64,000 bases of DNA from an uncultured Candidatus Saccharibacteria bacterium (GCA_964650645.1 CAZYUH010000001.1:15373-79372); one strand, 5' to 3'; counted from the stretch's first letter, positions 14,786 to 47,141 are shown. The notes: generated by a model not told the origin, from the letters alone. Translations and numbers: made by a program.

Positions 14786-15526
14786 CTATCCGGGAAGATT
14801 GAGAAGCTCGCGCTCGAGGGATTCGACCTCCTCCTTTAGCTTAGGGTCGAATTCGACGCGGGCGCAGCGCAGGCTCGCGGGAGGCGCGCCGCTTCCCTCT
14901 CCGACGGCCCGCTCTATCCTCTTTACGCCGTTGAGGACCGAAGCATGGTCCCTGCCGCCGAAGTGCTTCCCGATCTCGAAGAAGGATTTCTTCGTTATCT
15001 TCCGCGCCAGGTACATGCCGACCTGCCGGGGCCCCACGATATCCCTCGTGCGGGCGGACGACTTCAGCACGGACACCGGCACACCGTAACGCCTGGCCAC
15101 GGCGCGCACCACGTCATCGACGCCCGCGCGCTTGGGGAGGCGCGGATAGGTGCACGCGTACGGCTCTTCCCGGGGCGGCGCGGGAGCCGGAGCCGCAACC
15201 GGATCCCGCGCCGGCTTTTCCGCCGGCGCCCGCGCATCCTTCGGCGCGCGCGGCTCGAACCCGACCAGCGGGAGCGCCCGCACGGAAATACCGATGCGGC
15301 GCACGCCCGGCGCTTCGGCCTGGAAGGAGGACAGGATGCAAGCGGCGTACTTCGCCTGTATCCGCCTCTGGAGGAACACAGTCGGCACCGATAGCACGGC
15401 GCTCTCGTCCTGCATGCCGACAAGCTTGAGGCTCATAAGCCAGTTCTCATAGGCGTCCTGGCCGACGCTTTTCCGCAGCCTGTCCTGGATCCTGGACCAG
15501 CGGCCCTGCTCGATGCTATTCATCAA
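14786..15526 (-). CDS. DnaA-like protein with domain I, linker and domain IV only (no AAA+ domain)
   Basis: 246 aa. The N-terminus matches DnaA domain I (W..I...L......YENWL..L.......AVLSVPT.F). A Pro/Ala-rich linker follows. The C-terminus matches DnaA domain IV (IVGPRQVGMYLARKIT..SF.EIGKHFGGRDHASVL). No Walker A/B. Confidence 0.6.
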   Translation of the reverse strand: MMNSIEQGRWSRIQDRLRKSVGQDAYENWLMSLKLVGMQDESAVLSVPTVFLQRRIQAKYAACILSSFQAEAPGVRRIGISVRALPLVGFEPRAPKDARAPAEKPARDPVAAPAPAPPREEPYACTYPRLPKRAGVDDVVRAVARRYGVPVSVLKSSARTRDIVGPRQVGMYLARKITKKSFFEIGKHFGGRDHASVLNGVKRIERAVGEGSGAPPASLRCARVEFDPKLKEEVESLERELLNLPG

Positions 15527-24344: not shown

Positions 24345-24582
24345 CAGCCCATCAGCCTGGCCCACAGATAATCCAATCGCCGTCACGATTGGATTTCCGC
24401 AGGCCCCGCCTCGGCTGTTTTGCGTGCTCGCAAAACATGCCTCCGGCCGTCAGCCTGGTCACAAGTCGAATTCTGCCGTCGCAGAATCCGCTCGCGACCC
24501 CGCCTCGCGGCCCTGCCAGTGCAGGGCAACGCTGCGGCCGTCACCAGTACGCAAAAACGCGCAGCAGTGCGCGTTTTCGGTC
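24345..24582 (-). repeat. tRNA-trailer conserved multi-hairpin element (copy downstream of tRNA-Glu)
   Basis: On the minus strand: GAAAACGCGCActgcTGCGCGTTTTTGC, then GCAGCGTTGCC-CTGCactgGCAG-GGCCGCGAGG, then GGAGGCATGTTTTGCGagcaCGCAAAAC. Confidence 0.65.
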
Positions 24583-24656
24583 TGGTGACCCCACCGGGAA
24601 TCGAACCCGGATTGACGGCTTGAAAAGCCGGTGTCCTAACCGTTAGACGATGGGGC
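24583..24656 (-). tRNA. tRNA-Glu (anticodon TTC)
   Basis: Cloverleaf by hand. Acceptor GGCCCCA/TGGGGTC, T-loop GGTTCGATTCC, anticodon loop TTTTCAA. 3' CCA encoded. Confidence 0.85.
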
Positions 24657-24692
24657 CGTAGGCCCAGGCTCAAAGCCTTTCAAGCCTGGACT

Positions 24693-24782
24693 CGGCGGAG
24701 GAGGTGAGATTCGAACTCACGGTAGGGTTGCCCCTACGCCACATTTCGAGTGTGGTGCCTTCGACCACTCAGCCACTCCTCC
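24693..24782 (-). tRNA. tRNA-Ser (anticodon CGA)
   Basis: About 90 nt. Acceptor GGAGGAG/CTCCTCC, long variable arm, anticodon loop CTCGAAA, T-loop GTTCGAATC. Confidence 0.85.
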
Positions 24783-24890
24783 GTATGCGCACGAGAACAG
24801 ACGAAAAATACCATTTTTACGCCTTTTAGGCAAAAAGAAAGGCGGTCCCGGCATACGCCGAAACCGCCTGCAAGCGCTGGGGCGCTCGCG

Positions 24891-25631
24891 TCACTCCGCA
24901 GCCCGGTACTCCGGATTGCGCCACACGTGCCAGCGGCCCTCCTCGGCAAACCCGAGCCGCTCGGCCGTCCGGTCGTAGGTCTCCAGGATCCTCTCCTCGA
25001 TCACCTCCTTCACCTGCGCGCTGGAGGGCGGGAGCGTCACGCGGCACCTCGCAGAGGTCATCAGCCGCACCTCCTTGAGATTCGACGCGCGCGCCGCTTC
25101 CTGGGACGCCGCGACGAGCATCCTCGGCCATTTCATGTACAGGGAGCGGTGGAGCCGCACCTTCTTCGCGCCCTGCAATTGGCGTATGAAAAGGCAGCCG
25201 TCCTCGATCCACCCCGACATCATGAGCATCTGCTGGTCCTCATGGCACACGATCCAGGTTACCGGAGCGTCCGAGTGGATGTCGCAGCGCGGCCAGAAGG
25301 GCCGGACCCCGCGGCTCTCCCCCCTCAGGGGCTTCGCCGCGACAATGACACCGGTCACCCACTTATGGGAGAACTGCCGCCGTATCGCCTCGCGCACGGA
25401 GCGCACTTGGTCCCAATGCCGCACAGCGAGCGCGTAGCGCGCGAGGTACAGCGGCCAGGTCAGGTATCTCCGGACCCTCGTGCGGAGGGCATTCCATCCC
25501 AGGACCGCCCTCAGGCGCCCCGCGAGGCTTTTCATCCAGCCCGGGCATTTCCGGACCCGCCTGCGAGCAGGCTCCAGGCCCGGAGTGGCTTCCAGCCGCT
25601 CCGAAAGTCCTGCCGTTTCTGCATATTCCAT
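24891..25631 (-). CDS. hypothetical protein
   Basis: 246 aa from MEYAETAGL. No confidently recognisable family. Confidence 0.45.
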   Translation of the reverse strand: MEYAETAGLSERLEATPGLEPARRRVRKCPGWMKSLAGRLRAVLGWNALRTRVRRYLTWPLYLARYALAVRHWDQVRSVREAIRRQFSHKWVTGVIVAAKPLRGESRGVRPFWPRCDIHSDAPVTWIVCHEDQQMLMMSGWIEDGCLFIRQLQGAKKVRLHRSLYMKWPRMLVAASQEAARASNLKEVRLMTSARCRVTLPPSSAQVKEVIEERILETYDRTAERLGFAEEGRWHVWRNPEYRAAE

Positions 25632-25742
25632 GAACACTCCCTTGTTAGGTTCCTTTTTATCTATACCACAATAATGCAAAAAAGCATAGTACCTGGGGGG
25701 CGGTTTGCTATACTGGAATCATTACCCGCTAGCCGAACACAT

Positions 25743-26162
25743 ATGAACCGAGTCGTGCATTTCGAGATAATGGCCGATGACCTGGACAGGGCACAGAAGT
25801 TCTACGAGTCGGCCTTCGGCTGGACGTTCCAGGCCATGGGCGAGGCGTACGGCGGCTACCGCGTCATCGTGACCGGCCCCGGCCCCGACGACATGGCCAA
25901 GGGCGTCAGGATGGAGGACGTCGGCATAAACGGCGGGCTCATGAAGCGCAACGCTCCCCTGCCCGCGGACGGCCAGAGCCCCAACGCCTACACGGCGATA
26001 ATCAGCGTCGCTAATATTGACGAGGCGATGGCGAAGATCGACGCGGCGGGCGGCAGGCCCCAGACCGAGAAAATGGACGTGGCCGGCGTCGGGAAGGTCC
26101 GCTACTACAAGGACACCGAGGGCAACATCTTCGGCATTATCGAGCCGGCCCCGATGGCCTGA
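25743..26162 (+). CDS. VOC/glyoxalase-family protein
   Basis: 139 aa. VHFEI..DDLDRAQKFYESAFGW...G.....I.V.......G and second-half YFKDTEGNIFGI pattern of paired beta-alpha-beta-beta-beta modules. Confidence 0.65.
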   Translation: MNRVVHFEIMADDLDRAQKFYESAFGWTFQAMGEAYGGYRVIVTGPGPDDMAKGVRMEDVGINGGLMKRNAPLPADGQSPNAYTAIISVANIDEAMAKIDAAGGRPQTEKMDVAGVGKVRYYKDTEGNIFGIIEPAPMA

Positions 26163-26206
26163 GCTGACAATCGGCTGGTTTTTTGCTATTCTAACCGCGT
26201 TTGGAT

Positions 26207-26279
26207 GCGCGGTTAGCTCAGTTGGTAGAGCATCCCCTTGACGTGGGGAGGGTCATAGGTTCGAGTCCTATACCGCGCA
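26207..26279 (+). tRNA. tRNA-Val (anticodon GAC)
   Basis: GCGCGGT/ACCGCGC acceptor, D-arm AGCTCAGTTGGTAGAGC, anticodon loop TTGACGT, T-loop GGTTCGAGTCC. Confidence 0.9.
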
Positions 26280-26500
26280 CAGCAGGCAGAACAATCCCGC
26301 TTGAGCGGGATTTTCTGCACTGTGCGGACCGCAGCGATGTTTTGCACTTGCAAAACCGCGCGACGGGATCGCGAAACCATTTTGCGGCGGCAAAAACGGC
26401 ATTTGTGACCACAAGGTCGAAAAAGCAAACCGCTTTGCTTTTTCGCACACGTGTGCGAGCCGGAGCGTTGCCGCGCACCGGCGCGGCTGCGAGGCAGGGA
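26280..26500 (+). repeat. tRNA-trailer conserved multi-hairpin element (copy downstream of tRNA-Val; modules 1 and 2)
   Basis: Shares GCAGCGATGTTTTGCActtGCAAAACCGCGcgacgggaTCGCG with the Phe and Glu trailers. Shares AAAAGCAAAccgcTTTGCTTTTT...GGAGCGTTGCC-hairpin-GGCTGCGAGG with the Arg and Glu trailers. Confidence 0.7.
26294..26319 (+). terminator. intrinsic terminator directly after tRNA-Val (first part of the trailer element)
   Basis: ATCCCGCttgaGCGGGAT hairpin followed by TTTCTGC. Confidence 0.55.
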
Positions 26501-26697
26501 CAAAAGCAAACGTCGATGCCTCTCTGCAGCAGACCCTGGGTGGATATACAGCAATGCGCGCAGCGGAGCGCTAACGCCTGACAGGTACTTTTAGGCGTGG
26601 CTTGCGTAAAAATTATACCGTGGCATTATATCCATTGGAAAAGGGGCCATGGAGGTTTCCTTTAATCCAAAGTTCTTTAACAAAAAAGGAGATTGGC

Positions 26698-27072
26698 GTG
26701 GTCCAGACAGCTGAAATGAGCTCTCTTTCGCGAGAACTCGGGCGTTTCCTTGTAGTGGCGCAGGCGCACAAGCGGGAAACAGGCAAGCAAGCATTCATGC
26801 CCGCTTGTCCCGTGGACACCGAATGGCATCGACTCCTTGAACAGCCGGACGAGTACAACGAGTTCTGCCAGAATACGGTAGGACACACTATCCGTCACGA
26901 ACACGCCCAAGGCAAGGGCGAGGTCGACTGGACAAGAACCTACGAGAAGCTCTACGGCTCATTACCAGAAGTCTGGTTCCGGGACACCAGAGACGCTCTC
27001 AACAGGTCCCAGCGGCAGACCTATCTCGATACCGGGGTATTCTACGCTTCATGGGACTGCACCCCCCTCTAG
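26698..27072 (+). CDS. hypothetical protein (first gene of the low-GC island)
   Basis: 124 aa from a GTG start 6 nt after AAGGAG. No recognisable domain. Confidence 0.35.
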   Translation: MVQTAEMSSLSRELGRFLVVAQAHKRETGKQAFMPACPVDTEWHRLLEQPDEYNEFCQNTVGHTIRHEHAQGKGEVDWTRTYEKLYGSLPEVWFRDTRDALNRSQRQTYLDTGVFYASWDCTPL

Positions 27073-27141
27073 CAACAGGGCGGAGTTGAGACAAAGTCTT
27101 GATTCCGCCCTTTCTTCTATTCAAAAGAAAAGGAGAATAAC

Positions 27142-27948
27142 ATGGAAGACAGGCGAAATACCACAAATCAAGAGAATGATTCGTCACCTCTCCTGACCGT
27201 CCTTACATTCGGAGACAACTTGGCACCGGACATAGAAGGATTCCGCAATTACGTGGCAGAAGTTTCCTCAAACTTCTGCCCGTATGTCGAACCCTCTGCA
27301 ACGAAAGAATGCACGACCTATACCATCGTGCATTCCGACACCACAGACAAAGAAACGGCCGAGAAAATCGTTTTCGCAAGCGGATACGCCCTCTCTGAAC
27401 TGTTACGCAGAAAGAGATCGCTTCTATCGTTAAAGCAGCATGCGCCGCTTCTTTGCGAAAACGCCATCTTCCTATTTCCCCACATCGAGGATGCCTTGGG
27501 TAAGGAATTGCTCGGATGGCCTCACTGGGTGCTTAAATGCCGATACACCCAGCTTGGAGTGCTCTTTGGAAAGTTCTGGAAGAATGCTCAGGAGACAGCT
27601 AAAGACCGGCGAAATCTTCCTGTTCCGCCCTGCCACTTCATCTCCGTGCGGGAGAGTGTGCGGACGCGGGATCCGATATTCTTTGAACAGGCCGAATGGC
27701 TTCGTACTGATCTTGAGTCATCGAATGACGTTGGGCAAAACGCCTTTGGCGATATGTCCGGCACTGAAGATGTTTCTCACGCCCTCAAGGTGTTCTGCGA
27801 CGAGCCGACGCGTTTGAATTTCGAGCACGTACATGCTACGCTGCTCTCGAATAGTTTCTACGCACGAGCAAAAGAGTCGGCAGCCAGAGAACTTGAAGAT
27901 CAAAAACGCCGCAACGCAAGCAAAAAAAGGAGAACCGTATGCAATTAA
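27142..27948 (+). CDS. hypothetical protein
   Basis: 268 aa. AAGGAG ribosome-binding site 8 nt upstream. Overlaps the downstream kinase-like gene by 10 nt. Confidence 0.5.
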   Translation: MEDRRNTTNQENDSSPLLTVLTFGDNLAPDIEGFRNYVAEVSSNFCPYVEPSATKECTTYTIVHSDTTDKETAEKIVFASGYALSELLRRKRSLLSLKQHAPLLCENAIFLFPHIEDALGKELLGWPHWVLKCRYTQLGVLFGKFWKNAQETAKDRRNLPVPPCHFISVRESVRTRDPIFFEQAEWLRTDLESSNDVGQNAFGDMSGTEDVSHALKVFCDEPTRLNFEHVHATLLSNSFYARAKESAARELEDQKRRNASKKRRTVCN

Positions 27949-28832
27949 ACAAAGAAACGCAAAAACTTCTTGCTGAAATCGGACTCGAATACATTGAGAC
28001 GATTTTAGACCGACGGGGCACGCTTGCTCTGCGGGTTTTGAAAAGCAAAAGCGGAAAGCGCGCAGTACTCAAATTGCAGAGCGAAGATGGAAGCGAAGAA
28101 GCCCGCCATAAAGCCAAGCTTCTCGTACGAGAAGCGGAGATGCTTTCACAGGCCCCTGAACTTACCAACCATCTCTATGTTGGCCATGGCGAGAGTCAAG
28201 GGAAGTACTGGCTGCTTCTTCGTGAAGTTGGAGGAGAAAAAATCCATCAAGCTGCAAAGCAGATACAAGAGACCGTCACAGACCAAAAGAAGAGGATTTC
28301 GCAACTCGTAGAACTCCTCCTCAAAGTCTCCAGTTTCTACGATGCACTCTACCATGGCGGTTATCTCCATGGCGACGTGCAACCAGGTCACACCTATCTG
28401 GAGCACAACAAGGCCACCATCATTGACTGGGGTCTTGCAAGAAAAGTGGATGAGCGAAATCCTTTATACAGAGGCGGATTCGTTTACTTTGTAGCTCCTG
28501 AAATTGCGGCAGGAATGCATTCCGGTAAATCACCGATAGCGTACTCTCCGCATGCGGAAGTGTACGCCATAGGCGCAACATTGTATATGCTATACACGGG
28601 ACATCTCGCGCTCGACTTCGGGGTTCCCCAAGCCCAGTTGCGAGAAATCCCGATGAAGCAGAAACTTCAGCATGTCGTGGAGAATCGCATCTCCTCGTTC
28701 GAAGAAGTGGGCGCAGATTCACATCCGCCGCTTGAAGCGCTTATGCGGAAAAGCCTTTCGACTAATCCCGCAGAGCGTTTCGATAACCCATCATCTCTTC
28801 ACCAGCACCTTCGTGAGTTAGGGAGCTTATAA
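27939..28832 (+). CDS. atypical protein kinase-like protein (Hanks/ELK superfamily)
   Basis: 297 aa. VLKL (VAIK-like Lys), EAEML (alphaC Glu), YLHGDVQPGHTYL catalytic loop, IIDWGLARK (DFG-like), VAPE motif. Strong AGGAG ribosome-binding site. Confidence 0.55.
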   Translation: MQLNKETQKLLAEIGLEYIETILDRRGTLALRVLKSKSGKRAVLKLQSEDGSEEARHKAKLLVREAEMLSQAPELTNHLYVGHGESQGKYWLLLREVGGEKIHQAAKQIQETVTDQKKRISQLVELLLKVSSFYDALYHGGYLHGDVQPGHTYLEHNKATIIDWGLARKVDERNPLYRGGFVYFVAPEIAAGMHSGKSPIAYSPHAEVYAIGATLYMLYTGHLALDFGVPQAQLREIPMKQKLQHVVENRISSFEEVGADSHPPLEALMRKSLSTNPAERFDNPSSLHQHLRELGSL

Positions 28833-28855
28833 TCTCCATACTCATATAAAAAATT

Positions 28856-28889
28856 AAAAGGGCAACACATATTGTGTTGCCCTTTTTTC
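28856..28889. terminator. bidirectional terminator between the convergent kinase and HAD genes
   Basis: AAAAGGGCAACACatatTGTGTTGCCCTTTTTT. Confidence 0.65.
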
Positions 28890-29616
28890 ATTTTGCGAGT
28901 AGTTCATCTTCGATAAACTTCGCTATATCTTGCGCTGCATAGTCGCACCATTCGGGTGCGATCTCATATTCTTCATCGGTGTGCAAATCCACGAAACCGG
29001 ATTCACTCAAACCATTACCAACAAGCACCGTACAGAATCCCACCTCCTTGGCAGTCTTCAAGCTGGAAGGGATATCGTCAAACATCCAAATATCCTCCGG
29101 CGGGACATCGAGCCGTTTGATTGTGGCGGCATACACTTCCCGGTGCGGTTTACGGATAAAATTGTTATCTTCGACCGTAAACACGTTGGCAATGTGATCC
29201 TGTAGTCCCAAATGAGAGAGCCCTCGAAGCACGAAAGAGCGATTCGAGTTCGAAAAGACATAGAGTGGCACCCTGCGCGCCAGATGCTCAAGAGCTCTTC
29301 GAAGATTCGGTTTCGGAAACATCATACTAACATCGAGGCTGCCGTAGAGTTCTTCGTAAAACTCAAAAGGATCAACTTTGTGATGTTCCTGCAAGCCAAG
29401 GATGCTTGAGCGGTATTCCGTGCGATACTGGTGCAAAAGCTTTTGAACATCCTTTTCAGGGAGATTCAGCCTTTTCTGCGCGCACATGCGAAATCGCTGT
29501 TTAATCTGACTCTCGATACCAGCACTCGACGGATACAGCGTTCCGTCAAAGTCAAAAATGATTATCTTTGCTTCCCGCTTCAACCTTGACCACTCTTCAG
29601 GTATATTGCCGCTCAT
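28888..29616 (-). CDS. HAD-superfamily hydrolase (pyrimidine 5'-nucleotidase-like)
   Basis: 242 aa. Motif I IIFDFDGTLY, motif II VFSNS, Lys motif, motif IV MFDDIPSS. Confidence 0.7.
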   Translation of the reverse strand: MSGNIPEEWSRLKREAKIIIFDFDGTLYPSSAGIESQIKQRFRMCAQKRLNLPEKDVQKLLHQYRTEYRSSILGLQEHHKVDPFEFYEELYGSLDVSMMFPKPNLRRALEHLARRVPLYVFSNSNRSFVLRGLSHLGLQDHIANVFTVEDNNFIRKPHREVYAATIKRLDVPPEDIWMFDDIPSSLKTAKEVGFCTVLVGNGLSESGFVDLHTDEEYEIAPEWCDYAAQDIAKFIEDELLAK

Positions 29617-29828
29617 TTTCTAACCTCGTCTTTTCAGTTTCGGGTTATCAAAAAACATCTTTTACTGTAAAATATTCTACCCTGATTTTCATAATAAGCA
29701 ATGCGCGTCTAAAAGCACCTGCCGCACACCCCTTCCACATCCTCCAATATCCGCAATATTGTAAACGAACCTCTAACCACACAAAGACAAAAGAAGAAAA
29801 AGCGCCGGCCCTTGGGCCGGCGCTGCTT

Positions 29829-31013
29829 TTACCCGGGTACGAGGTCCCCGTTTATCTGCTTTACGACCTCCAGGACCGACTCGGCGTCGGTCTTGCCGCC
29901 CTTCACCGCCTCGTCGGCGATGATGACGACGCGGGGGTGGGTCATGCCGAACATGTAGAACAGGTACCACCCCTTGCGCCCCTCAACGGGCACGAGCCTG
30001 CGCACTATGGCCGCAAGCGACTGCCCCGCGAAGTCCTGCCCCCTTTTGCTCCCCACCAGGTAGTCGGTAAGCACCGACCCGCCCGCGAGTATGAAGAACC
30101 CGCGGTTGCCGCCGAAAAGGCCGGCGCGCAGGTCGGGCATACGGTCGCCCGCCGAGAGTGTCGTAAACTCCTCGGTCGGAATGCCGGTCGCATGCGCCAC
30201 GCGCCGGAGCACGTGGTTGAACGCCCCCTCCTTGGTAAGCCGCTTATGCGGCACCAGGTAGAGCTGGTAGCGGCCCTTAACCGGATTACTCTCGTCAATG
30301 AACTCGATAGAGCGGGCAATCCGGGCAAGCGACGCCTCCTTCGTGCAGGCGCGGTAGCGGCGTATCCGCTCGCGCACCAGCTTCTTCCACTCGCACCCGT
30401 CTACGCCGGGCTTGGCGGTTATCTCGAAGCGGCATTCGACCTCCTGGACGTCAGCGAGGCCGTTCTTGTAATTGTCGGGTTCCTCAAGATGCGAGAAGCC
30501 GCCGCGTATCAGATTGTCCGCATCCACGTACTCGAGCAGGAGCCGGACGGAGCGCTTCCAATGCTCCCGCTCCACTTCGTAGCGAGCATAGTACTCCTTG
30601 TCCGGGTAATACGCGCCGTTGCGCCGTATCCATATCCCTTCCCCGATGCTGTGTATCGCATCAGGGTCGGCCAGATGGGCGTATTTGCGCATGGTAGAGA
30701 GCGGCCGGCACACGCGCCTGCCGTTCTCCGTAGAGCATTTCGGCTCGAGCCGGGAAAACCCGGCCTTCCGCGACGCGGCGAGCGCGCCCTCGCTCATGCA
30801 GAGCTCGGGCGTGCGCGCCGTTGTCAGGACGTATCCGCCGTGCGTCTCAAGAATCTCCCGTATTTCGCGCCGGGCCCCAAGCTCCGCATCGGACGGGTAG
30901 TCCGAATACGAGGAAAGAGTCCCGTCTATATCCAGCAAAGAAATAAGCCTGCTCCTTCCCGCTTTTTCCGCAAGATCAGTATGAGCGTATGCACATTCGC
31001 CTCGTGCAAGCAT
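29829..31013 (-). CDS. hypothetical protein with N-terminal HAD-like DxDGT motif
   Basis: 394 aa from MLARGE. AAGGA ribosome-binding site. LLDIDGTLS motif. The upstream in-frame extension is antisense to tsaD and probably non-coding. Confidence 0.45.
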   Translation of the reverse strand: MLARGECAYAHTDLAEKAGRSRLISLLDIDGTLSSYSDYPSDAELGARREIREILETHGGYVLTTARTPELCMSEGALAASRKAGFSRLEPKCSTENGRRVCRPLSTMRKYAHLADPDAIHSIGEGIWIRRNGAYYPDKEYYARYEVEREHWKRSVRLLLEYVDADNLIRGGFSHLEEPDNYKNGLADVQEVECRFEITAKPGVDGCEWKKLVRERIRRYRACTKEASLARIARSIEFIDESNPVKGRYQLYLVPHKRLTKEGAFNHVLRRVAHATGIPTEEFTTLSAGDRMPDLRAGLFGGNRGFFILAGGSVLTDYLVGSKRGQDFAGQSLAAIVRRLVPVEGRKGWYLFYMFGMTHPRVVIIADEAVKGGKTDAESVLEVVKQINGDLVPG

Positions 31014-31155
31014 CCTTAGTTCCCCCGTAAGGTACGTGCAGCCCCCATAGGCTGCCCCACAGGCGAGCCTACACCCGAATGCCTGATAAATCCATGAAGA
31101 CGCCAGGCACCCGATACGCCATTGAAATCCGCGCTTTTTGCCGTATTCTTGCGCT

Positions 31156-32235
31156 ATGCGCCTGCTTGCGATAGAAACCTCCTGCGACGAGACCGGCATC
31201 GCCCTTTTGGAAGGCCGGAATGCGGGCGACACGCTCGAAATCACGACCGTTAAAGCGGCTCTTTTGTCGCAGGCGAACCTGCACGCCGAATACGGCGGCG
31301 TATTCCCCACGCTCGCCAAGCGCGAGCACACAAAGAACCTGCCAGCGCTGTTTGAAGGGTTCAAGGGCGAGCGGTTCGACGCCGTCGCCGTAACGCACGG
31401 CCCCGGGCTTGAGCCCGCGCTCTGGACCGGCATCGAGTTCGCGAAAGCGCTCGCAAAGGAGCGCGGCGTGCCGCTCCTGCCCGTCAACCATATGGAGGGG
31501 CACATCATATCCTCGCTTGCGGAGCGCACCGGCGACGTCGCGCGCATGCGCGGCGTGCAGTTCCCGGTGCTTGCCCTGCTTGTCTCGGGCGGCCACACCG
31601 AGTTCGCGCTCAGCCGCGCGTGGTTTGAGTACGAGCTGCTGGGCCGCACGCTCGATGACGCCGTGGGCGAGGCGTTCGACAAGGTGGCGCGCATGCTCAA
31701 CCTGCCGTACCCGGGCGGGCCCGAGATATCGAAGCTTGCCGCAACCGCCCGCCAGAGTGGAGTGATATATCAATCCACTGCGCCAAAACTGCCGCGCCCG
31801 ATGCTTCATACCGACTCCTGCGACGTCTCGTTCTCGGGGCTCAAGACCGCCGTGCTGTACGCCCTGCGCGATTTGGGCGGCATCCAAGCGCTTTCAGGCG
31901 AGCAGGCGGCGGCGGTCGCCGCCGAGTTCGAGGACGCGGTCGCCGAGGTGCTGGTGGCCAAGTCGCGCCGCGCATTGAATGAGTCAGGCGCGAAGACGTT
32001 CGTCATCGGCGGCGGCGTGGCGGCCAACCGCTACCTGCGCGAAGAATTGCAGAAAATGGTCCTCGACGAGTTCCCCGACGTCGACTTCAGGCTCCCGCAC
32101 CTCTCCATTACCGGCGACAACGCGGTCATGATCGGCGAAGCAGCCATGGCGCACCTTCTTTTAAACGATTGGCAGCTCGATTCATCAAGGTTCAACCTTG
32201 ATATTAAGGCGCAAGGCAGCCTTTCTCTTGCCTAA
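31156..32235 (+). CDS. tsaD: tRNA N6-adenosine threonylcarbamoyltransferase
   Basis: About 360 aa. LAIETSCDETG, HMEGH, and Kae1/TsaD family pattern throughout. Confidence 0.9.
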   Translation: MRLLAIETSCDETGIALLEGRNAGDTLEITTVKAALLSQANLHAEYGGVFPTLAKREHTKNLPALFEGFKGERFDAVAVTHGPGLEPALWTGIEFAKALAKERGVPLLPVNHMEGHIISSLAERTGDVARMRGVQFPVLALLVSGGHTEFALSRAWFEYELLGRTLDDAVGEAFDKVARMLNLPYPGGPEISKLAATARQSGVIYQSTAPKLPRPMLHTDSCDVSFSGLKTAVLYALRDLGGIQALSGEQAAAVAAEFEDAVAEVLVAKSRRALNESGAKTFVIGGGVAANRYLREELQKMVLDEFPDVDFRLPHLSITGDNAVMIGEAAMAHLLLNDWQLDSSRFNLDIKAQGSLSLA

Positions 32236-32258
32236 AAAGTGTTGTAAAGTAAGGCCGT

Positions 32259-34415
32259 ATGGCAGTGCCGGACAAATTCTTAAAGCCCTACGACGCGCAG
32301 GGCGCCGAGGATTCCATATATAAGGAATGGGAGGAATCGGGCTACTTCAACCCCGACAACCTTCCCCCCGTAGACGGCCACGAGCGCACCGAGCCGTTTT
32401 CAATCGTCCTGCCGCCGCCCAACGTTACCGGCACGCTCCACCTAGGCCACGCCTCGATGCTCGCCATAGAGGATATCCTGGTGCGCTTCAAGCGCATGCA
32501 GGGCTACAAGGCGCTCTGGCTGCCCGGCACCGACTCGGCCGCGATAGCCACGCAGAGCAAGGTCGAGAAGGAAGTGCAGAAAGCCGAGGGCAAATCGCGC
32601 CACGACCTGGGCCGCGAAGAGCTGTTAAAGCGCATTGACGCTTTCGCGAAAGGGAGCGAGAGCACCATCATCAATCAGGTAAAGCGCATGGGCTCGAGCC
32701 TCGACTGGAGCCGCTACGCCTACACGCTCGACGAGAAGCGCTACGCCGCGGTCATGGAGGCGTTTTGCGCCATGCACGAAGCGGGGCTCATCTACCGCGG
32801 CACGCGCATCGTCAACTGGGACCCGAAGGGCCAGACGACCATTTCAGACGACGAGATAGTGCACGAGGAGCGCACCGCGAAGCTCGTCACGTTCAAGTAC
32901 TCGAAGGACTTCCCCATCCCGGTGGCGACGACGCGCCTTGAGACGAAAGTCGGCGACGTCGCGGTCGCGGTGCACCCCGACGACGCGCGCTACAAGGAGT
33001 TCGTGGGGCGCGAGTACGACGCGGTCTTCTGCGGCGTGCCCGTGCATATACAGGTCGTTGCCGACAAGGATGTGGACCCGGCATTCGGCACGGGCGCCTT
33101 GGGCGTCACCCCGGCTCACTCCGCGGCCGACTGGGACATAGCCGAGCGCCACGGCATTGCGCGCAGGCCGCAGGTTATAAACGAGTACGCCAAGATGACC
33201 GTCGAGGGGCCGCTCAATGGGAAGAAGGTCTTGGAGGCGCGCGCGACAGTGCTCGAGTGGCTCAAGGCCGAGGGGCTTTTTATAGAGGAGAAAGACGTCC
33301 AGCAGAACGTCTCGACCGCCGAGCGCACCGGCGGCATTATCGAGCCCCTGCCCAAGCTCCAGTGGTTCATCGACGTCAACGCACCCGTAGCCGCGCGCGG
33401 CGGCCGCTCGCTCAAGGAGATAATGCGCGGCGCGGTGTCCTCGGGCGACATAGCCATCACGCCCGCGCATTTCGAGAAGATATACATGCACTGGATAGAC
33501 AATCTGCGCGACTGGTGCATCTCGCGCCAAATCTGGTTCGGGCACCGCATCCCCGTCTGGTACAAGGACGGCGAGATGAAAGTGCAGGCGCAAAGCCCCG
33601 GCGAAGGGTGGGAGCAGGACCCGGACACGCTCGACACATGGTTTTCTTCCGGACTCTGGACGTTTTCCACGCTCGGCTGGCCCGAAGAAACCGCCGACCT
33701 CAAGACGTACCACCCCACCTCGGTCCTGGAGACCGGGTACGACATACTCTTCTTCTGGGTGGCGCGCATGGTGCTTATGAGCGGATTCTTCTTGGGCGAT
33801 GTTCCCTTCAAGAACGTGTACCTCCACGGGCTGGTGCGCGACGGCCAGGGGCGCAAGATGTCCAAGAGCCTCGGCAACATCATCGACCCCTTGGACATGA
33901 TAGCCAAGTACGGCGCCGACGCGGTGCGGCTTTCGCTCATTATGGGCGCGGCGCCCGGCAACGACATACGCCTCGACGAGAACCGCATCCGCGGCTACAA
34001 GAACTTCGCCAACAAGGTGTGGAACATCGCGCGCTTCGTGCTTGAGAGCGCAGAGGCCGCAGGCGCCGACACCAACTCATCCATTGCGCCCGAGGACGAG
34101 CATGTTGTAACAGAGGCGCGCACGGCCGCAGCGGCGGTTGCCAAGCACATAAACAGCTTCAGGCTCGACTTGGCCGCCGACGCCGCCTACCAGTTCATCT
34201 GGAGCCGCTTCGCCGACCAGATACTCGAAGAGAGCAAGCCTCTCATAAAAGGCGCCGATTCCGCGCGCGCCGCATCGCGCGCGCAGGCGCTCCTCCAGGC
34301 GCTCGGCATCATCCTCAAGACGCTCCACCCGTTCATGCCGTTCGTCACCGAGGAAATCTGGAAAGACATGCCCGGCCGCCGCGGCCTCCTCATGGTCGAG
34401 CAGTGGCCCGCATAG
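32259..34415 (+). CDS. valS: class I aminoacyl-tRNA synthetase, valyl-tRNA synthetase-like
   Basis: 718 aa. PPPNVTGTLHLGHA (HIGH region), KMSKSLGN. ValRS-like editing/insertion layout, shorter than canonical with no C-terminal coiled coil. Confidence 0.7.
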   Translation: MAVPDKFLKPYDAQGAEDSIYKEWEESGYFNPDNLPPVDGHERTEPFSIVLPPPNVTGTLHLGHASMLAIEDILVRFKRMQGYKALWLPGTDSAAIATQSKVEKEVQKAEGKSRHDLGREELLKRIDAFAKGSESTIINQVKRMGSSLDWSRYAYTLDEKRYAAVMEAFCAMHEAGLIYRGTRIVNWDPKGQTTISDDEIVHEERTAKLVTFKYSKDFPIPVATTRLETKVGDVAVAVHPDDARYKEFVGREYDAVFCGVPVHIQVVADKDVDPAFGTGALGVTPAHSAADWDIAERHGIARRPQVINEYAKMTVEGPLNGKKVLEARATVLEWLKAEGLFIEEKDVQQNVSTAERTGGIIEPLPKLQWFIDVNAPVAARGGRSLKEIMRGAVSSGDIAITPAHFEKIYMHWIDNLRDWCISRQIWFGHRIPVWYKDGEMKVQAQSPGEGWEQDPDTLDTWFSSGLWTFSTLGWPEETADLKTYHPTSVLETGYDILFFWVARMVLMSGFFLGDVPFKNVYLHGLVRDGQGRKMSKSLGNIIDPLDMIAKYGADAVRLSLIMGAAPGNDIRLDENRIRGYKNFANKVWNIARFVLESAEAAGADTNSSIAPEDEHVVTEARTAAAAVAKHINSFRLDLAADAAYQFIWSRFADQILEESKPLIKGADSARAASRAQALLQALGIILKTLHPFMPFVTEEIWKDMPGRRGLLMVEQWPA

Positions 34416-34463
34416 GCGGTTCTGCACAGGCCCTTGGCGCGCGGCGCGTGCTACAATCTCGGC

Positions 34464-35150
34464 ATGTCCGGAGCGGTCTTTCTCATCGCGGCACTGGGAG
34501 GCCTGCTCCCGGCGCTCTTGTGGCTCGCCTTCTGGCTCATGGAAGACCGTTGCGAGCCGGAGCCTAAGCGCTACCTGTTCTTCTGCTTTTTGGCGGGCAT
34601 GGCGGCCGTGCCGCTCGTCCTGCCGCTTGAAACGGCCGCCGACATCTACCTGGACGGCTCCCAGCTCCTGCTCGCATGGGCCGTCATAGAGGAGCTTCTG
34701 AAGTTCGGCGCGGCCTACCTGGCGGCGTTGCGCTTCCGCGTGTTCGACGAGCCGCTCGACGGCGTTATTTACCTTGTCACGGCGGCGCTCGGCTTCTCGG
34801 CGCTCGAGAACGCGCTTTTCCTTGTAGACCCGGCGAGCGCGGGCGACGCCCTGCGCATGCTGGTCATGGGCGACCTGCGCTTTATCGGCGCGTCGCTCCT
34901 GCACGTCCTCGCGTCGGCCACCATCGGCATCAGCCTCGCGCTCTCGTTCCACCAGAGCGCCGCCAAGCGGCGCCTTGCGGCCGCGATAGGAGTTATCCTC
35001 GCCGTTTCATTGCATGCGCTCTTCAATTTACTTATACTTACTAGCGGCAGCGGGAAAATATTTCTCGTCTTCCTCGCTCTCTGGCTCGGCATCGTGGCCC
35101 TTCTTTTCGCGATTGAACAGGTCAAGCAGCCGGCGCGGGACTACTGTTAA
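34464..35150 (+). CDS. PrsW-family intramembrane protease-like protein
   Basis: About 228 aa polytopic membrane protein. EELLKFGAAY (EExxK) and FxxxH-like LHVLASATIG motifs. Confidence 0.55.
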   Translation: MSGAVFLIAALGGLLPALLWLAFWLMEDRCEPEPKRYLFFCFLAGMAAVPLVLPLETAADIYLDGSQLLLAWAVIEELLKFGAAYLAALRFRVFDEPLDGVIYLVTAALGFSALENALFLVDPASAGDALRMLVMGDLRFIGASLLHVLASATIGISLALSFHQSAAKRRLAAAIGVILAVSLHALFNLLILTSGSGKIFLVFLALWLGIVALLFAIEQVKQPARDYC

Positions 35151-35177
35151 TCGCTAATACGCATCCAAGCATCATTT

Positions 35178-35693
35178 ATGGCACGAGACAGGCGATCCTT
35201 GTTCGAGTGGCTCACGGGAAGCCAGGGCGAAAGCGACTATTCCTTCGACGAGCTCGAGCAGGGCGGCTCCTCGTACTCCCCCGTGACCGTGCGCGCGAAC
35301 AAGCACGTGCCCATACACCACGCGGAACAGCCCGCCTTCATGGCGGAGCCCCAGGAGGAGCCCGCCGGCGAGCTCGCGGTGGACGTCTATCAGACTCCCA
35401 CCCATATAATCATCAAGGCCATGATAGCCGGCGTGAAGCCAGACGATTTGGACGTGTCCATTACCCGCGACATGGTGACCATCCGCGGCAAGCGCGAACG
35501 CCACACCGAGGGCAATGCGGGCGACTTCTTCTTCCAGGAGCTGTACTGGGGCGCGTTCAGCCGCACCATCGTCCTGCCGCAGGAGGTTGAGATTGAGGAG
35601 GCCGAGGCTTCCGAGAAGCACGGCCTGCTTACCGTGCGCCTCCCCAAGCTCGACAAGGGCCGCCAAGCCAAGCTCAAGGTCAAATCGAACTAA
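35178..35693 (+). CDS. Hsp20/alpha-crystallin small heat-shock protein
   Basis: 171 aa. ELAVDVYQT...I.A...G.....DV.I....V.I.G.R....E......E...G.F.R...LP alpha-crystallin domain. Confidence 0.85.
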   Translation: MARDRRSLFEWLTGSQGESDYSFDELEQGGSSYSPVTVRANKHVPIHHAEQPAFMAEPQEEPAGELAVDVYQTPTHIIIKAMIAGVKPDDLDVSITRDMVTIRGKRERHTEGNAGDFFFQELYWGAFSRTIVLPQEVEIEEAEASEKHGLLTVRLPKLDKGRQAKLKVKSN

Positions 35694-35694
35694 G

Positions 35695-35722
35695 GAGAAT
35701 CCCGCCGGAAGGCGGGATTCTC
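35695..35722 (+). terminator. hairpin after hsp20
   Basis: GAGAATCCCGCCggaaGGCGGGATTCTC perfect 12-bp stem; weak U-tract. Confidence 0.45.
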
Positions 35723-35759
35723 AATCCCTTTATGCTCCCCTGCCACGGCTGGGCGGTTT

Positions 35760-35902
35760 TTTTGCTTTCTTGATCACAACTCAAGATTTGCCGTCGCAAA
35801 TCTTGGTCGCGATCCCGGCTCGCGGTTTTGCCATTGCAAAACATCGCTCCGCCTCACAAGATCGCAGAAAACCCGCCACATGGCGGGTTTTCTGTCTCCT
35901 TG
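35760..35902 (-). repeat. tRNA-trailer conserved multi-hairpin element (copy downstream of tRNA-Phe)
   Basis: On the minus strand: GAAAACCCGCCatgtGGCGGGTTTTCTGC terminator, then GGAGCGATGTTTTGCAatgGCAAAACCGCGAgccgggaTCGCG, then GATTTGCgacgGCAAATC. Confidence 0.7.
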
Positions 35903-35975
35903 TGCTTGGGGCCGGGCTCGAACCGGCGACATCTTCCTCTTCAGGGAAGCGCTCTACCAACTGAGCTACCCAAGC
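35903..35975 (-). tRNA. tRNA-Phe (anticodon GAA)
   Basis: GCTTGGG/CCCAAGC acceptor, D-arm AGCTCAGTTGGTAGAGC, anticodon loop CTGAAGA, T-loop GGTTCGAGCCC. Confidence 0.9.
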
Positions 35976-36018
35976 AATGAGGCCAGTTTAGCAAAATACG
36001 GGGCTTTAAGCCACTCCC

Positions 36019-36309
36019 CTACGGCCTCGTCGAAGTCCCGAAATACTGCCCGAAGAAGCCGCTTACCTGCTGCTGGAAGTCCTGCGCCGAGCCGTAGGCG
36101 TCCGCAACCTGCCTGACATACGGCTGGACGTACGTGTAGTAGGAATAGGCCGACACGCCGAGCACGAGGAGCCACCACACGACGCTCGCAAGGGTGTGCA
36201 TGCGCTGGCTGCGGCGCATGGAGCGCACCATCTTGTTGGTGTCGGCATTAAGGGCGGCCTGGCGCCTCACCAGCTCCTTGAGCTCCTGCATGTCCAGATC
36301 GTTCTCCAT
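36019..36309 (-). CDS. small membrane protein (hypothetical)
   Basis: 96 aa with one TM helix (LASVVWWLLVLGVSAYSYYTYV). Confidence 0.35.
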   Translation of the reverse strand: MENDLDMQELKELVRRQAALNADTNKMVRSMRRSQRMHTLASVVWWLLVLGVSAYSYYTYVQPYVRQVADAYGSAQDFQQQVSGFFGQYFGTSTRP

Positions 36310-36332
36310 AAGCGTATGCTACCACGGCCGCG

Positions 36333-36485
36333 CTAGAGCCCCAGGAGCGCCGCGGCGGCCTGCGCCTTCTGCATGTAAAACCCGTGGATGCCGCTCCAGT
36401 ACCACCCGGTAGCCGCAAGCGCGAGGCACAGCCCCAGCGTAAGGTGCCACAAGGGCGCTTTCTTGCGTTTTTGAGTCTTCTTCAT
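36333..36485 (-). CDS. candidate 50-aa membrane peptide (below ORF-track cutoff)
   Basis: MKKTQKRKKAPLWHLTLGLCLALAATGWYWSGIHGFYMQKAQAAAALLGL read by hand from the minus strand; tandem with the previous ORF. Confidence 0.25.
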   Translation of the reverse strand: MKKTQKRKKAPLWHLTLGLCLALAATGWYWSGIHGFYMQKAQAAAALLGL

Positions 36486-36509
36486 GTACCAAGTATACTA
36501 CCCAAGTGC

Positions 36510-36581
36510 GCCCTCGTAGCTCAATGGATAGAGCTACTCCGTCCTAAGGAGAAGATGTGGGTTCGATTCCTGCCGAGGGCA
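36510..36581 (+). tRNA. tRNA-Arg (anticodon CCT)
   Basis: GCCCTCG/CGAGGGC acceptor, D-arm AGCTCAATGGATAGAGC, anticodon loop GTCCTAA, T-loop GGTTCGATTCC. Confidence 0.85.
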
Positions 36582-36589
36582 CAAGATAG

Positions 36590-36665
36590 GAAAAGCAAAC
36601 TGCTTTGCTTTTTCGCGTACTTGTGCCGGGCGGAGCGTTGGCGTGCACTTGCACGGCCCGCGACC
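36590..36665 (+). repeat. tRNA-trailer element (module 2 copy downstream of tRNA-Arg)
   Basis: AAAAGCAAActgcTTTGCTTTTTcgcgtacttgtgccgGGCGGAGCGTTGGcGTGCacttGCACgg; about 80% identical to Val-trailer module 2. Confidence 0.65.
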
Positions 36666-36672
36666 GCCACAC

Positions 36673-36912
36673 CTACGCCTCGACCCCGAGCTTTGCCGCC
36701 ACCTTTGCGCGGTCGAAGCCGACCATGAGCTCGTCGCCTATCTGGATGACCGGCACGCCCAGCTGGCCGGTGAGCTGTATCATCTCCTCGCGCTTGGCTG
36801 CATCAGTAGAGACGTCGTAGCCGGTGTACTGCACGTTCTTCTCAGCAAAGAATTCCTTGGCCATCGTGCAGAAATGGCAGGTCGGGGTGGTGTAGATGGT
36901 TACGTTTTTCAT
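36673..36912 (-). CDS. glutaredoxin/NrdH-like redoxin
   Basis: 79 aa. CHFC active site near the N-terminus, thioredoxin fold pattern (VP.I.IGD). Confidence 0.75.
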   Translation of the reverse strand: MKNVTIYTTPTCHFCTMAKEFFAEKNVQYTGYDVSTDAAKREEMIQLTGQLGVPVIQIGDELMVGFDRAKVAAKLGVEA

Positions 36913-36948: not shown

Positions 36949-37019
36949 GCGGGATTAGTTCAGTGGCAGAACGAGTGCTTCCCAAGCATTAGGCGCGAGT
37001 CCGATTCTCGCATCCCGCA
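36949..37019 (+). tRNA. tRNA-Gly (anticodon CCC)
   Basis: GCGGGAT/ATCCCGC acceptor, anticodon loop TTCCCAA. T-loop reads TCCGATT (C at position 55 instead of the usual T), so slightly atypical. Confidence 0.7.
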
Positions 37020-37023
37020 CCCT

Positions 37024-43657: not shown

Positions 43658-43950
43658 ACGTCTGCGCGCGCGTCTGTAAGCCGGGTTCTGTCGTGGACAA
43701 TAATTTATCTGGGCCCATGGTCGCCCATGGGCTCGAGCGGCACTCCCGATCGCTCGGGCACGGCCTTGCATCCGGGTAAGGATTTAGCCGTTTCACCTCC
43801 ACCAAAGGAGCTCGTCTCTGTTCGCACCTCTTTTGCCCGCAGGAGCAAATGACAGGGGTTACCTGCTACCCTTTTAACCGATTGCTCGGTAGATGCCCGG
43901 ACTTTCCTCCCGACCCGTTTGGGGCCGAGCTATTGCCTAACGCGCTGGAC
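43655..43950 (-). ncRNA. rnpB: RNase P RNA (bacterial type, reduced)
   Basis: The minus strand carries the universally conserved P4 halves GGAAAGUCCGGGC (complement of 43895-43907) and ACAGAACCCGGCUUA (complement of 43677-43691), with GGUGAAACGG in between. Ends are approximate. Confidence 0.7.
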
Positions 43951-46918: not shown

Positions 46919-47056
46919 GGCTTGACCCTCGACAATCCGGGCCTCCGCGCGAATTTATTCGCCGGAGGCTCTTTCTTTTTGTAAAAAACTGTCCCGGGCG
47001 CGGTTTTCTTCCGCCAGCAAAAGGCGCCCCGGACGCCCATGCTTTTGTTTGTACGG

Positions 47057-47141
47057 CGGAGGCGGTGAGATTCGAACTCACGGTAGGTTGCCCTACGCCG
47101 CCTTTCCAAGGCGGTGCACTAGACCGCTATGCGACGCCTCC
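47057..47141 (-). tRNA. tRNA-Ser (anticodon GGA)
   Basis: GGAGGCG/CGCCTCC acceptor, long variable arm, anticodon loop TTGGAAA, T-loop GTTCGAATC. Confidence 0.85.

Follow-up and report, generated by a model that had tools for sequence, protein, structure and literature searches.

The REP/BIME (REPIN), ERIC, BOX, RUP and Correia families are short, multi-copy, non-coding hairpin repeats; they can serve as RNase targets, stabilise transcripts or terminate them. Class C group II introns insert after intrinsic terminators and pair with the host through their exon-binding and intron-binding sites (EBS-IBS pairing). In Patescibacteria, whose genomes are very small and encode fewer RNA-processing enzymes than usual, the maturation of transfer RNA (tRNA) is poorly known. 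The element described here was studied in a 64-kb stretch of DNA (CAZYUH010000001.1:15373-79372 of assembly GCA_964650645.1), referred to as the window, in which copies of it directly follow the genes of tRNA-Glu, tRNA-Val, tRNA-Phe and tRNA-Arg. A complete copy comprises a trailer hairpin (H_T), whose stem takes in the 3' end of the preceding (host) gene, and a conserved core of two hairpins (A and B), in many copies followed by a direct copy of the host 3' end. The reading favoured here, tentatively and with a probability of about 0.4, is that the element is a co-transcribed 3'-end RNA module that has spread in the manner of a repeat; as judged from sequence comparison, the family would be a strand-specific, structured, non-coding 3' extension of tRNA genes, of the transfer-messenger RNA (tmRNA) gene and of a few other highly expressed genes.

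That the trailers of the four tRNA genes are homologous had been noticed in an initial annotation of the window, and the tRNA genes were called with ARAGORN where that annotation had placed them. The homology was recovered with a repeat finder (Val-Arg, 78 nt, 81%; Glu-Phe, 81 nt, 72%; Glu-Arg, 100 nt, 76%; Val-Phe, 65 nt, 82%) as well as with a hidden Markov model (HMM) and a covariance model (CM). The unit HMM (nhmmer) yielded exactly six copies in the 64 kb, with E values from 1e-13 to 6e-33 and nothing further below E = 0.07, and the same six were recovered by the covariance model CM R1, run in the window with filters off. All six units lie 3' of the four tRNA genes and none elsewhere in the window. 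The degenerate core motif matched three times, compared with 0.17 matches expected, and trailer folding compared with shuffles gave z-scores of -6.1, -11.1 and -7.5. Since the four loci cover a small fraction of the window, their co-location with tRNA 3' ends is very probably not due to chance.

Comparison material consisted of genome loci of about 8 kb and of metagenome contigs, labelled L001 etc. where a label is needed. A degenerate core pattern was compared with one genome per species, which yielded at least 116 stretches; among the matches listed, 57 stretches carried true copies according to HMM and CM, the remaining ones being chance matches in GC-rich genomes. These 57 stretches come from at least 37 species-level metagenome-assembled genomes. 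A second, independent sample comprised 120 metagenome contigs, from sites that include the Hainich groundwater and Rifle; 115 of them contained a total of 135 core matches. The metagenome-assembled genomes are labelled Candidatus Adlerbacteria, Paceibacterota, Kaiserbacteria, Nomurabacteria or Saccharibacteria, the last of these labels being apparently wrong. The window is syntenic with several element-bearing loci at 66-82% nucleotide identity and therefore belongs to the same clade, which is one of Adlerbacteria-like Patescibacteria.

The core was aligned from 61 distinct copies and its structure was obtained with RNAalifold and completed manually, which resulted in two hairpins within 87 nt. 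Hairpin A reads GSC / GS-A / GCG / WU / 7-bp stem with an A-N-Y-K loop / CGC / GA / GSC, and hairpin B is a 19-bp stem in which GGUCGCGAG pairs with CUUGUGACC, with one bulged A, a variable upper stem and a GACG loop as its cap. The junction and loop nucleotides GSC-GS-AGCG-WUG, CCGCGAG and the GACG loop are invariant. In the alignment, 95.7% of the cells are paired, compared with 76% in column shuffles and 35-40% with slid partners, and changes on both sides occur in 23 of the 32 pairs (362 cells). The compensations in stems that the initial annotation had listed are real; in the stem GTTTTGCA/TGCAAAAC, 11 to 23 sequences carry double changes per pair among the 61 copies. The pair at columns 4:38 in the basal helix of hairpin A is G-C versus C-G in 92 versus 55 copies (p = 6e-31). 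As had been proposed, the core is a structured element held by compensatory change and not a product of drift. G.U pairs number 127 versus 18 A.C combinations in the core, and G.U is the commonest pair at two positions of hairpin B, so the core folds on the tRNA-sense strand.

Two details of the initial annotation did not survive the alignment. The proposed hairpin CGCGA-loop-TCGCG shows 0 compensatory pairs and is equal to shuffles; the changes on its 3' side are compensated in the long hairpin B instead, where TCGCGAG pairs with CTTGTGA with strong covariation. A micro-ORF (short open reading frame, ORF) beginning within the core, for which the annotation itself had given a Shine-Dalgarno spacing of 2 nt, is rejected because its start codon begins with A in some copies and with T in others (ATG or TTG) and because substitutions follow base pairing and not codons. 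Regarding known RNA motifs, hairpin A does not fit the tandem sheared G.A pairs of a kink-turn (by eye only), a topology like that of the hepatitis delta virus ribozyme could not be mapped onto the nested helices, and loop-loop (kissing) pairing between the CUGC/UUGA trailer-hairpin loop and other loops showed no association; neither a pseudoknot nor loop-loop covariation was found. A comparison with Rfam 15, which the initial annotation had proposed, placed no family on the element at gathering score and none over the cores even at E = 10, at which weak, sub-threshold chance matches brush the hairpins only.

A GC stem-loop, whose stem covaries, and then a U-tract of 4-5 nt come between host and core. 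The tetraloop is CUGC or UUGA in approximately 100 of 156 copies. The GC hairpin of the terminator that the initial annotation had described was thus recovered, whereas its U-tract is only 4-5 nt long and pairs with an upstream A-tract, and a consensus terminator scan did not call the trailer hairpins on the tRNA strand. Past the U-tract lies a segment whose sequence complements the first nucleotides of the trailer, the discriminator and the last 2-6 nt of the acceptor 3' strand of its own host. The outer stem of the trailer hairpin takes in the last 3-11 nt of the host plus the trailer start on one side and a locus-specific Watson-Crick complement of these on the other (e.g., CCCGCACAAG and CTTGTGCGGG at the tRNA-Ile host in L001), so that the full hairpin, of about 25 near-perfect bp, encloses the host 3' end. 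This host complement and the host-end copy treated below are the two most unusual features of the element; both were absent from the initial annotation.

Host pairing was assessed by the longest Watson-Crick or identity run with the own host versus other hosts, under 10000 permutations. The longest Watson-Crick run averaged 8.43 nt with the own host and 5.15 nt with other hosts, and none of the 10000 permutations reached as high a value. In core-less tRNA genes of the same loci the corresponding values were 4.33 and 4.36, i.e., there is no complement, which rules out a general trait of the tRNA terminators of the clade and shows that the host complement belongs to the element. At tmRNA the complement matches the 3' strand (GGAGACG) by Watson-Crick pairing and is not a copy of the 5' strand (GGGGATG); an origin by copying of the 5' acceptor strand is ruled out by an A opposite U70, where the tmRNA 5' strand has G. 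At the gene of ribosomal protein S9 (rpsI) the hairpin includes the last codons, and the complement tracks a synonymous AAA/AAG change. The complement of tRNA-Phe is likewise compensated between orthologs, with CACAAG/CTTGTG in the window versus CACATGT/ACATGTG in L137. The distance from the U-tract to the core is 12-15 nt, which leaves no room for a promoter; the core would therefore be transcribed by read-through only, and the trailer hairpin would be a leaky terminator at most. The presence of covarying structure downstream of the U-tract implies substantial read-through.

A guide-like complement beside a conserved structured core with invariant junction nucleotides, at a fixed distance from the host end, is also what might be expected of a self-cleaving ribozyme, or of an intron or ribozyme fragment, that uses the complement as a guide for cutting the host 3' end. 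This explanation is regarded as highly improbable: besides the lack of any Rfam ribozyme or intron match at E = 10 and of pseudoknot or loop-loop covariation, the putative cut site is enclosed in a perfect helix that lacks an internal loop, and in size the core falls far short of any group I or group II intron. Since no model matches, the size is wrong and there is no pseudoknot, class C group II introns, group I introns and known ribozymes were rejected as candidates.

In many copies, the host 3' end is repeated in direct orientation after hairpin B; this host-end copy measures 5-20 nt, varies, and is in places absent or decayed. Two forms are distinguished. In the short form, the identity run of the host-end copy averaged 5.97 nt with the own host versus 5.09 nt with other hosts (3 of 10000 permutations as high), and in the long form 9.17 nt versus 5.66 nt (1 of 10000). 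Hosts of the long form are tmRNA, tRNA-Met, tRNA-Asp, tRNA-His, tRNA-Pro, some tRNA-Glu and tRNA-Arg(CCG), and an intron-bearing tRNA. Its parts come in this order: after the host and a first hairpin, a segment complementary to the acceptor 3' strand; a further hairpin, again with the CUGC/UUGA loop; a segment complementary to the T-loop and to the 3' strand of the T-stem; the core; and a host copy that runs from the middle of the T-loop past the discriminator. In L051 and L094 a long-form unit and its host-end copy are followed by a short-form unit, as if the copy were a tRNA end. The copy at rpsI repeats the last codons and mostly tracks the same synonymous change as the complement. Since both the real host end and the downstream copy are possible partners of the complement, two alternative conformations are suggested. 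Some partial forms were also seen (L009, ~1795-1850; L040, tRNA-Val UAC; L010, tRNA-Arg CCG), which in some cases consist of a CUGC hairpin and a host complement with no core, and in one case of the start of the long form (complement, second hairpin, CAGGAATCGAAAGG) with the core missing; they could be deletion derivatives or precursors.

With its two complements and its copy, the long form can build a mimic of the acceptor and T stems of the host with the core in place of the T-loop, and in the longest copies (L043, 20/20 nt; L041, 18/18; L113, 15/15) these stems are rebuilt around the core. Together with the fact that tRNA and tmRNA share exactly the enzymes in question and with conserved loops that hint at a partner, this raises the possibility of a free small RNA on a tRNA-like scaffold, from which RNase P and the tRNA 3' enzymes would excise the core as a stable, abundant RNA acting in trans, in the way that mascRNA and tRNA-scaffolded RNAs arise. 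We consider this explanation unlikely, as the common short form, including all window copies, has a weak closing stem, the T-loop is gone, the rpsI-linked copies contain nothing tRNA-like, and at several tmRNA loci the host-end copy is decayed in its acceptor part while the complement still fits the real gene. An acceptor stem, a T arm with T-loop and a free 3' NCCA, by which a tRNA-like structure is recognised, are not jointly present.

Regarding the genome loci, 80 core matches were found with the CM, of which 44 are located right after a tRNA (short form), 15 after tRNA or tmRNA (long form), 10 in tandem and three displaced; eight have no called host, and four of these lie at a locus edge with a tRNA 3' end visible. 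Regarding the metagenome sample, 101 of the 135 cores follow a tRNA and two a tmRNA, nine are in tandem, nine at a contig edge and 14 in other positions; the core usually starts 42-48 nt past the host end. The linkage to tRNA 3' ends claimed by the initial annotation is thus far above chance in both sets (59 of 80 and 103 of 135 after tRNA or tmRNA), and approximately 90% of the copies lie directly 3' of a tRNA or tmRNA end or of another copy, always in the orientation of the host strand. The two outcomes that the initial annotation had named as refuting its view, an ordinary dispersed repeat with neither tRNA association nor covariation and an element already described in Rfam, were not found, as association and covariation are both present and Rfam contains no counterpart.

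The restriction to tRNA hosts has to be given up. Six copies that seemingly lack a tRNA sit 3' of tmRNA, and five copies, from at least five genomes or contigs, directly follow the stop codon of rpsI (...KARKRKQWSKR*; L098, 2981-3068; L144, L175, L190 and L232). Four further copies follow a structured, RNA-like region with no Rfam match (L150, ~1190-1450, minus strand; L070, 1-100; L182, ~800-960; L204, ~2500-2730); this type of region is GC-rich and multi-hairpin, ends in ...(A)ATAGGTTCTAGC...CTCA or similar, and has no relatives in Rfam or, by blastn, among the fetched loci. Two copies follow a tRNA gene that bears a group I intron and was missed by ARAGORN for this reason. Altogether, the hosts comprise at least 17 tRNA species, tmRNA and rpsI.

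In L174 (7193-7460, plus strand) a group I intron (Rfam, 74.8 bits) splits the tRNA gene, the element follows the tRNA 3' exon, and the same 3' exon is present in L055. Group I introns in tRNA genes of Patescibacteria have recently been reported (PMC13011429), with which the case of L174 agrees; that paper makes no mention of trailers, terminators or repeats. A full-text literature search did not find a described tRNA-trailer element in Patescibacteria. At one of the six tmRNA loci (L028), a LOOT RNA (Rfam RF03000, 71 bits; 2057-2175, minus strand) lies just 3' of the copy that follows tmRNA and shares its strand; none was seen at the five others.

Genes for tRNA and tmRNA are the classic targets of integrative elements, and the direct repeats of the long form begin in the T-loop or at the 3' end, with the older units pushed downstream in L051, L094 and L091. 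The copies might thus be scars or miniature derivatives of such elements, in which the host-end copy would be the right attachment site (attR) and tandem units would have arisen by accretion. A direct repeat of the 3' part of the gene is indeed present in the long form (up to 20/20 nt), whereas the copy directly follows the core, with neither integrase nor cargo between the repeats, and there is no single target gene; near-identical cores sit at different hosts, and a range of at least 17 tRNA species plus rpsI is incompatible with sequence-specific recognition of an attachment (att) site. No integrase was seen adjoining any copy, the clustering of 918 neighbouring ORFs yielded syntenic housekeeping families only and no recurrent family beside the copies, and a scan of viral contigs gave no real copy, the three matches being at chance level (CM score at most 28 bits) on contigs with no tRNAs. 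The interior is a covarying, RNA-like core and not the heterogeneous remnant of an island, and an inverted host copy is no feature of att sites. An origin as integrase scars is therefore very unlikely, a phage or plasmid origin was rejected after the viral-contig scan, and the suggestion of the initial annotation that a recombination hot-spot seeds islands next to these tRNA genes found no support, as neither islands nor integrases flank the copies.

In the window, tRNA-Glu(UUC) (24583..24657, minus strand; ARAGORN, Rfam) is the last of a Ser(CGA)-Glu gene pair, with tRNA-Ser-CGA at 24694-24782 (minus strand; ARAGORN). Its trailer hairpin (24540..24589, minus strand) is formed by GTCACCAG (24582-24589, host end and trailer start) and CTGGTGAC (24540-24547), which enclose a short U-tract and a GC stem-loop whose loop is CUGC; in the minimum free energy fold of tRNA-Glu plus trailer, a hairpin of about 22 bp forms at the cost of the end of the acceptor stem. 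Unit 1 (24454..24540, minus strand) is a full 87-nt core with hairpin A and the long hairpin B (CM R1, 98.3 bits). Unit 2 (24357..24449, minus strand) is a divergent tandem core (CM R1, 49.7 bits; nhmmer, E = 1e-13), which adjoins unit 1 with no terminator-like hairpin and has TTTTGCG/CGCAAAA as its stem 1.

Downstream of tRNA-Val(GAC) (26207..26280, plus strand; ARAGORN, Rfam), the trailer hairpin (26276..26326, plus strand) pairs CGCACAG (26276-26282) with CTGTGCG (26320-26326) around ATCCCGC-TTGA-GCGGGAT (26294-26311), and a full core follows as unit 1 (26326..26413, plus strand; CM R1, 70 bits). Unit 2 (26418..26504, plus strand; CM R1, 40.5 bits; 81% repeat match to the Arg trailer) is truncated: its own hairpin CGAAAAAGCAAA-CCGC-TTTGCTTTTTCG (26418-26445) and the palindrome CGCACACGTGTGCG (26444-26457) are followed by hairpin A alone (26457-26504). 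Unit 2 retains a complement segment that fits the tRNA-Val end CGCACA, as might be expected had unit 1 been inserted later, next to the tRNA. What the initial annotation had called module 2 is present, although it is a second, truncated unit of the same element. The single unit at tRNA-Phe(GAA) (35902..35975, minus strand; ARAGORN, Rfam) is a full core (35769..35855, minus strand) with the top score in the window (CM R1, 99.2 bits), and its trailer hairpin (35855..35904, minus strand) pairs CACAAG (35899-35904) with CTTGTG (35855-35860) around AAAACCCGCC-ATGT-GGCGGGTTTT. At tRNA-Arg(CCU) (36510..36582, plus strand; ARAGORN, Rfam) the trailer hairpin (36578..36627, plus strand) pairs GGCACAAG (36578-36585) with CTTGTGCC (36620-36627) around AAAAGCAAA-CTGC-TTTGCTTTT; the unit (36627..36671, plus strand) is truncated to hairpin A (CM R1, 22.5 bits; nhmmer, E = 6e-21 for the whole trailer) and stops at the stop codon of a convergent ORF (36673-36912, minus strand). 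A possible, uncertain degenerate remnant was seen by sequence 3' of tRNA-Ser-GGA (47055-47141, minus strand; ARAGORN) at 46991..47015 (minus strand), where AAAACCGCGCCCGGGAC (17 nt, 46991-47007) resembles AAAACCGCGAGCCGGGGTC of the core, while the tRNA end TCCGCC has its complement in GGCGGA (47010-47015); neither HMM nor CM yielded a match there.

Regarding the 3' ends of the hosts, tRNA-Glu encodes CCA (24583-24585), and the discriminator is followed by CAG in tRNA-Val and by CAA in tRNA-Phe and tRNA-Arg; clade-wide, position 74 is nearly always C, with or without an element. Rfam reports only seven tRNA genes, the seventh being tRNA-Gly (36949-37021, plus strand; ARAGORN), and one RNase P RNA in the window. 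The latter is of bacterial class A (43661-43948, minus strand; 288 nt versus a model of 367 positions; 112 bits, gathering score 100) and looks like a reduced form; no copy of the element lies downstream of it. The genes of the window are ordinary chromosomal ones (GyrA, S1, FtsZ, TsaD, a class I aminoacyl-tRNA synthetase, Hsp20, LepA and MurJ), and no integrase or transposase was found among them in the part scanned. A 246-aa ORF (14786-15526, minus strand) has the N-terminal and the C-terminal helix-turn-helix domains of DnaA, with no AAA+ ATPase domain reported by Pfam. Two direct-repeat pairs of 55-56 nt, 77-89% identical and 818-826 nt apart (1643-1778 and 2461-2604), adjoin two neighbouring minus-strand ORFs (a methyltransferase domain in 1788-2378, no Pfam match in 2601-3080), which points to a local tandem duplication. 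Neighbouring ORFs with DUF6875 and a eukaryote-type protein kinase domain (27142-28832, plus strand) are situated between the loci of tRNA-Val and tRNA-Phe; no link to the element was found for them.

The sites are filled or empty depending on the genome. The tRNA-Phe site carries the element in the window and in L137 and is empty in L050 and L094; at tRNA-Arg(CCU) the window has the truncated unit, where L137 has just a 19-bp hairpin; and the sites at tRNA-Val, tRNA-Glu and tRNA-Lys vary among related genomes too. The placements at tmRNA, tRNA-Asp and rpsI recur over several genera. For 54 of the 61 cores the nearest relative is a copy in another genome at a different host gene. Core similarity within the same genome versus between genomes was 0.693 versus 0.685 overall and 0.52 versus 0.48 at variable columns, so a recent intragenomic burst or concerted evolution is ruled out. 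The element is an old, constrained family with turnover. The block of tRNA-Phe and element (35769-35975 in the window; 5272-5480 in L137) is inverted relative to the Hsp20 gene, with which it is convergent in the window and co-directional in L137; the element stays on the tRNA strand in both arrangements.

As the main alternative, this turnover can also be read in terms of a selfish, non-autonomous DNA repeat of the REP/REPIN kind or of the kind of miniature inverted-repeat transposable elements (MITEs), whose hairpins would be read as single-stranded or cruciform DNA by an enzyme acting in trans; gene 3' ends would be the only tolerated sites in a compact genome, and the element would supply a replacement terminator. 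The number of copies (at least 5-7 sampled per genome of approximately 0.6-1 Mb), the tandem arrays, truncated and displaced units, the variably occupied orthologous sites and the relationships of the cores across genomes and hosts all fit such a repeat, as do the direct host copies, which flank the element like a target duplication, and the near-perfect palindrome of the trailer hairpin with almost no G.U. We nevertheless regard this explanation as somewhat unlikely. Placement is always in the orientation of the host transcript, the strand-specific use of G.U and the invariant loop nucleotides of the core are as in functional RNAs, the tmRNA, tRNA-Asp and rpsI copies have been kept over several genera with compensatory changes, and the similarity of same-genome copies gives no sign of a recent burst. 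No transposase, RAYT (IS200/IS605-like), integrase or reverse-transcriptase family recurs near the copies in the 8-kb loci or in the scanned part of the window. A REPIN has a constant, imperfect palindrome of 20-40 nt in inverted pairs, whereas the present element has an 87-nt core of two hairpins, variable stems and a long palindrome that is partly host-derived; the constant terminal inverted repeats of a MITE are likewise missing, as the repeats flanking the core copy the 3' end of each host and are locus-specific.

If the element is a co-transcribed module, as favoured here, its action might be pictured as follows. Part of the transcripts would halt at the weak U-tract, and in read-through transcripts the host 3' end would be drawn into the long duplex. 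A double-strand-specific endonuclease, most likely RNase III, could cut this duplex and thereby free the host RNA for trimming and CCA addition, while the core may bind a factor or block exonucleases and so insulate neighbouring genes. The downstream host-end copy might compete for the complement and thereby switch the conformation, so that the real 3' end is released. The module would have spread by gain, loss, tandem duplication and displacement at 3' ends in a REP- or MITE-like manner, which is in part borne out by the copies described above.

Several observations weigh against this reading. Only a minority to approximately half of the tRNA genes carry the element, and tRNA-Ser, tRNA-Thr and tRNA-Gly almost never do; it is thus not a general need of tRNA maturation. 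The short form puts only 2-4 host-specific bp into the acceptor stem, and its closing helix with the host-end copy is weak (4.7 versus 4.0). The initial annotation had left open whether the structure acts as RNA or as DNA; folding of the tRNA-sense strand answers this for the core, whereas in the trailer hairpin only 1.8% of the pairs are G.U, compared with 6.5% in the core, which fits DNA-level copying or a DNA palindrome as well as selection on RNA. Perfect host-end copies of 17-20 nt imply a copying mechanism that lies outside the favoured reading. Together with the near-absence of G.U from the long hairpin, they favour some DNA-level copying step, which is explained neither by a co-transcribed module nor by a selfish repeat.

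A more far-reaching proposal, which we consider doubtful, is that the element is a base-pair-programmed 3'-end device, in which the core is a conserved scaffold and the complement a locus-specific guide copied from the host 3' end. The guide would direct either the endonuclease that makes the 3' ends of tRNA, tmRNA and some mRNA in these small genomes, or the templated insertion of the element itself at the 3' ends of RNA genes. If true, a guide-plus-scaffold system of a new kind would be at hand, in which the guide is taken from the gene next to it. A role in 3'-end formation would amount to a new cis-acting route to tRNA and tmRNA maturation, and a selfish nature to a repeat that tailors itself to each host gene end, which would need a novel copying mechanism. 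In either case, CM R1 allows annotators to recognise a recurrent, currently unannotated feature with a well-supported structure, whose share of the intergenic sequence is measurable; experimenters obtain defined substrates in the host end, the hairpin and the core.

The closest described systems each match the element in part. With the REP/BIME, ERIC, BOX, RUP and Correia repeats it shares hairpins, a modular build, a location just after genes, co-transcription, and gain and loss among relatives; unlike these repeats it lacks a constant palindrome and terminal inverted repeats, a RAYT or transposase was not seen near the copies, it abuts the exact 3' end of stable-RNA genes, with a host complement and often a host-end copy, and its core shows invariant loops and a strand asymmetry of the RNA type. 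Integrative elements directed at tRNA and tmRNA genes have the same hosts, a direct repeat from the T-loop or acceptor end and serial accretion downstream, whereas the present element measures 130-250 nt, has no integrase, uses many tRNA species plus rpsI, and combines an extra inverted host-end copy with a conserved, covarying interior. Like class C group II introns, it lies just 3' of a terminator-like hairpin and contains an internal segment that pairs with upstream host sequence, whereas its length is 87-130 nt versus more than 600 nt, with no Rfam intron match, domain V, 3' exon or reverse transcriptase.

The tRNA trailers of E. coli and tRNA-like processing handles are the remaining comparisons. 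The terminator of E. coli leuX is reported to be removed by PNPase or RNase P (PMC2811032) and those of proK, proL and proM by RNase E (PMC5291269). In these cases, as would hold here, the hairpin starts right after the tRNA and endonucleolytic removal is needed for a mature 3' end. The E. coli hairpin differs in that it is not known to include the acceptor strand, to have a conserved core behind it or to belong to a repeat family. The long form rebuilds the acceptor and T stems of the host in the manner of tRNA-like processing handles (MALAT1 mascRNA, viral tRNA-like structures, the tRNA-like domain of tmRNA), unlike which it has an 87-nt core in place of the T-loop and a mimic that is optional, absent from the window copies and able to copy any upstream gene. 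For a host-derived complement and copy around a conserved scaffold we know of no counterpart, nor was one found in the literature. The element is, in sum, a structured terminator-associated repeat with unusual host-derived parts.

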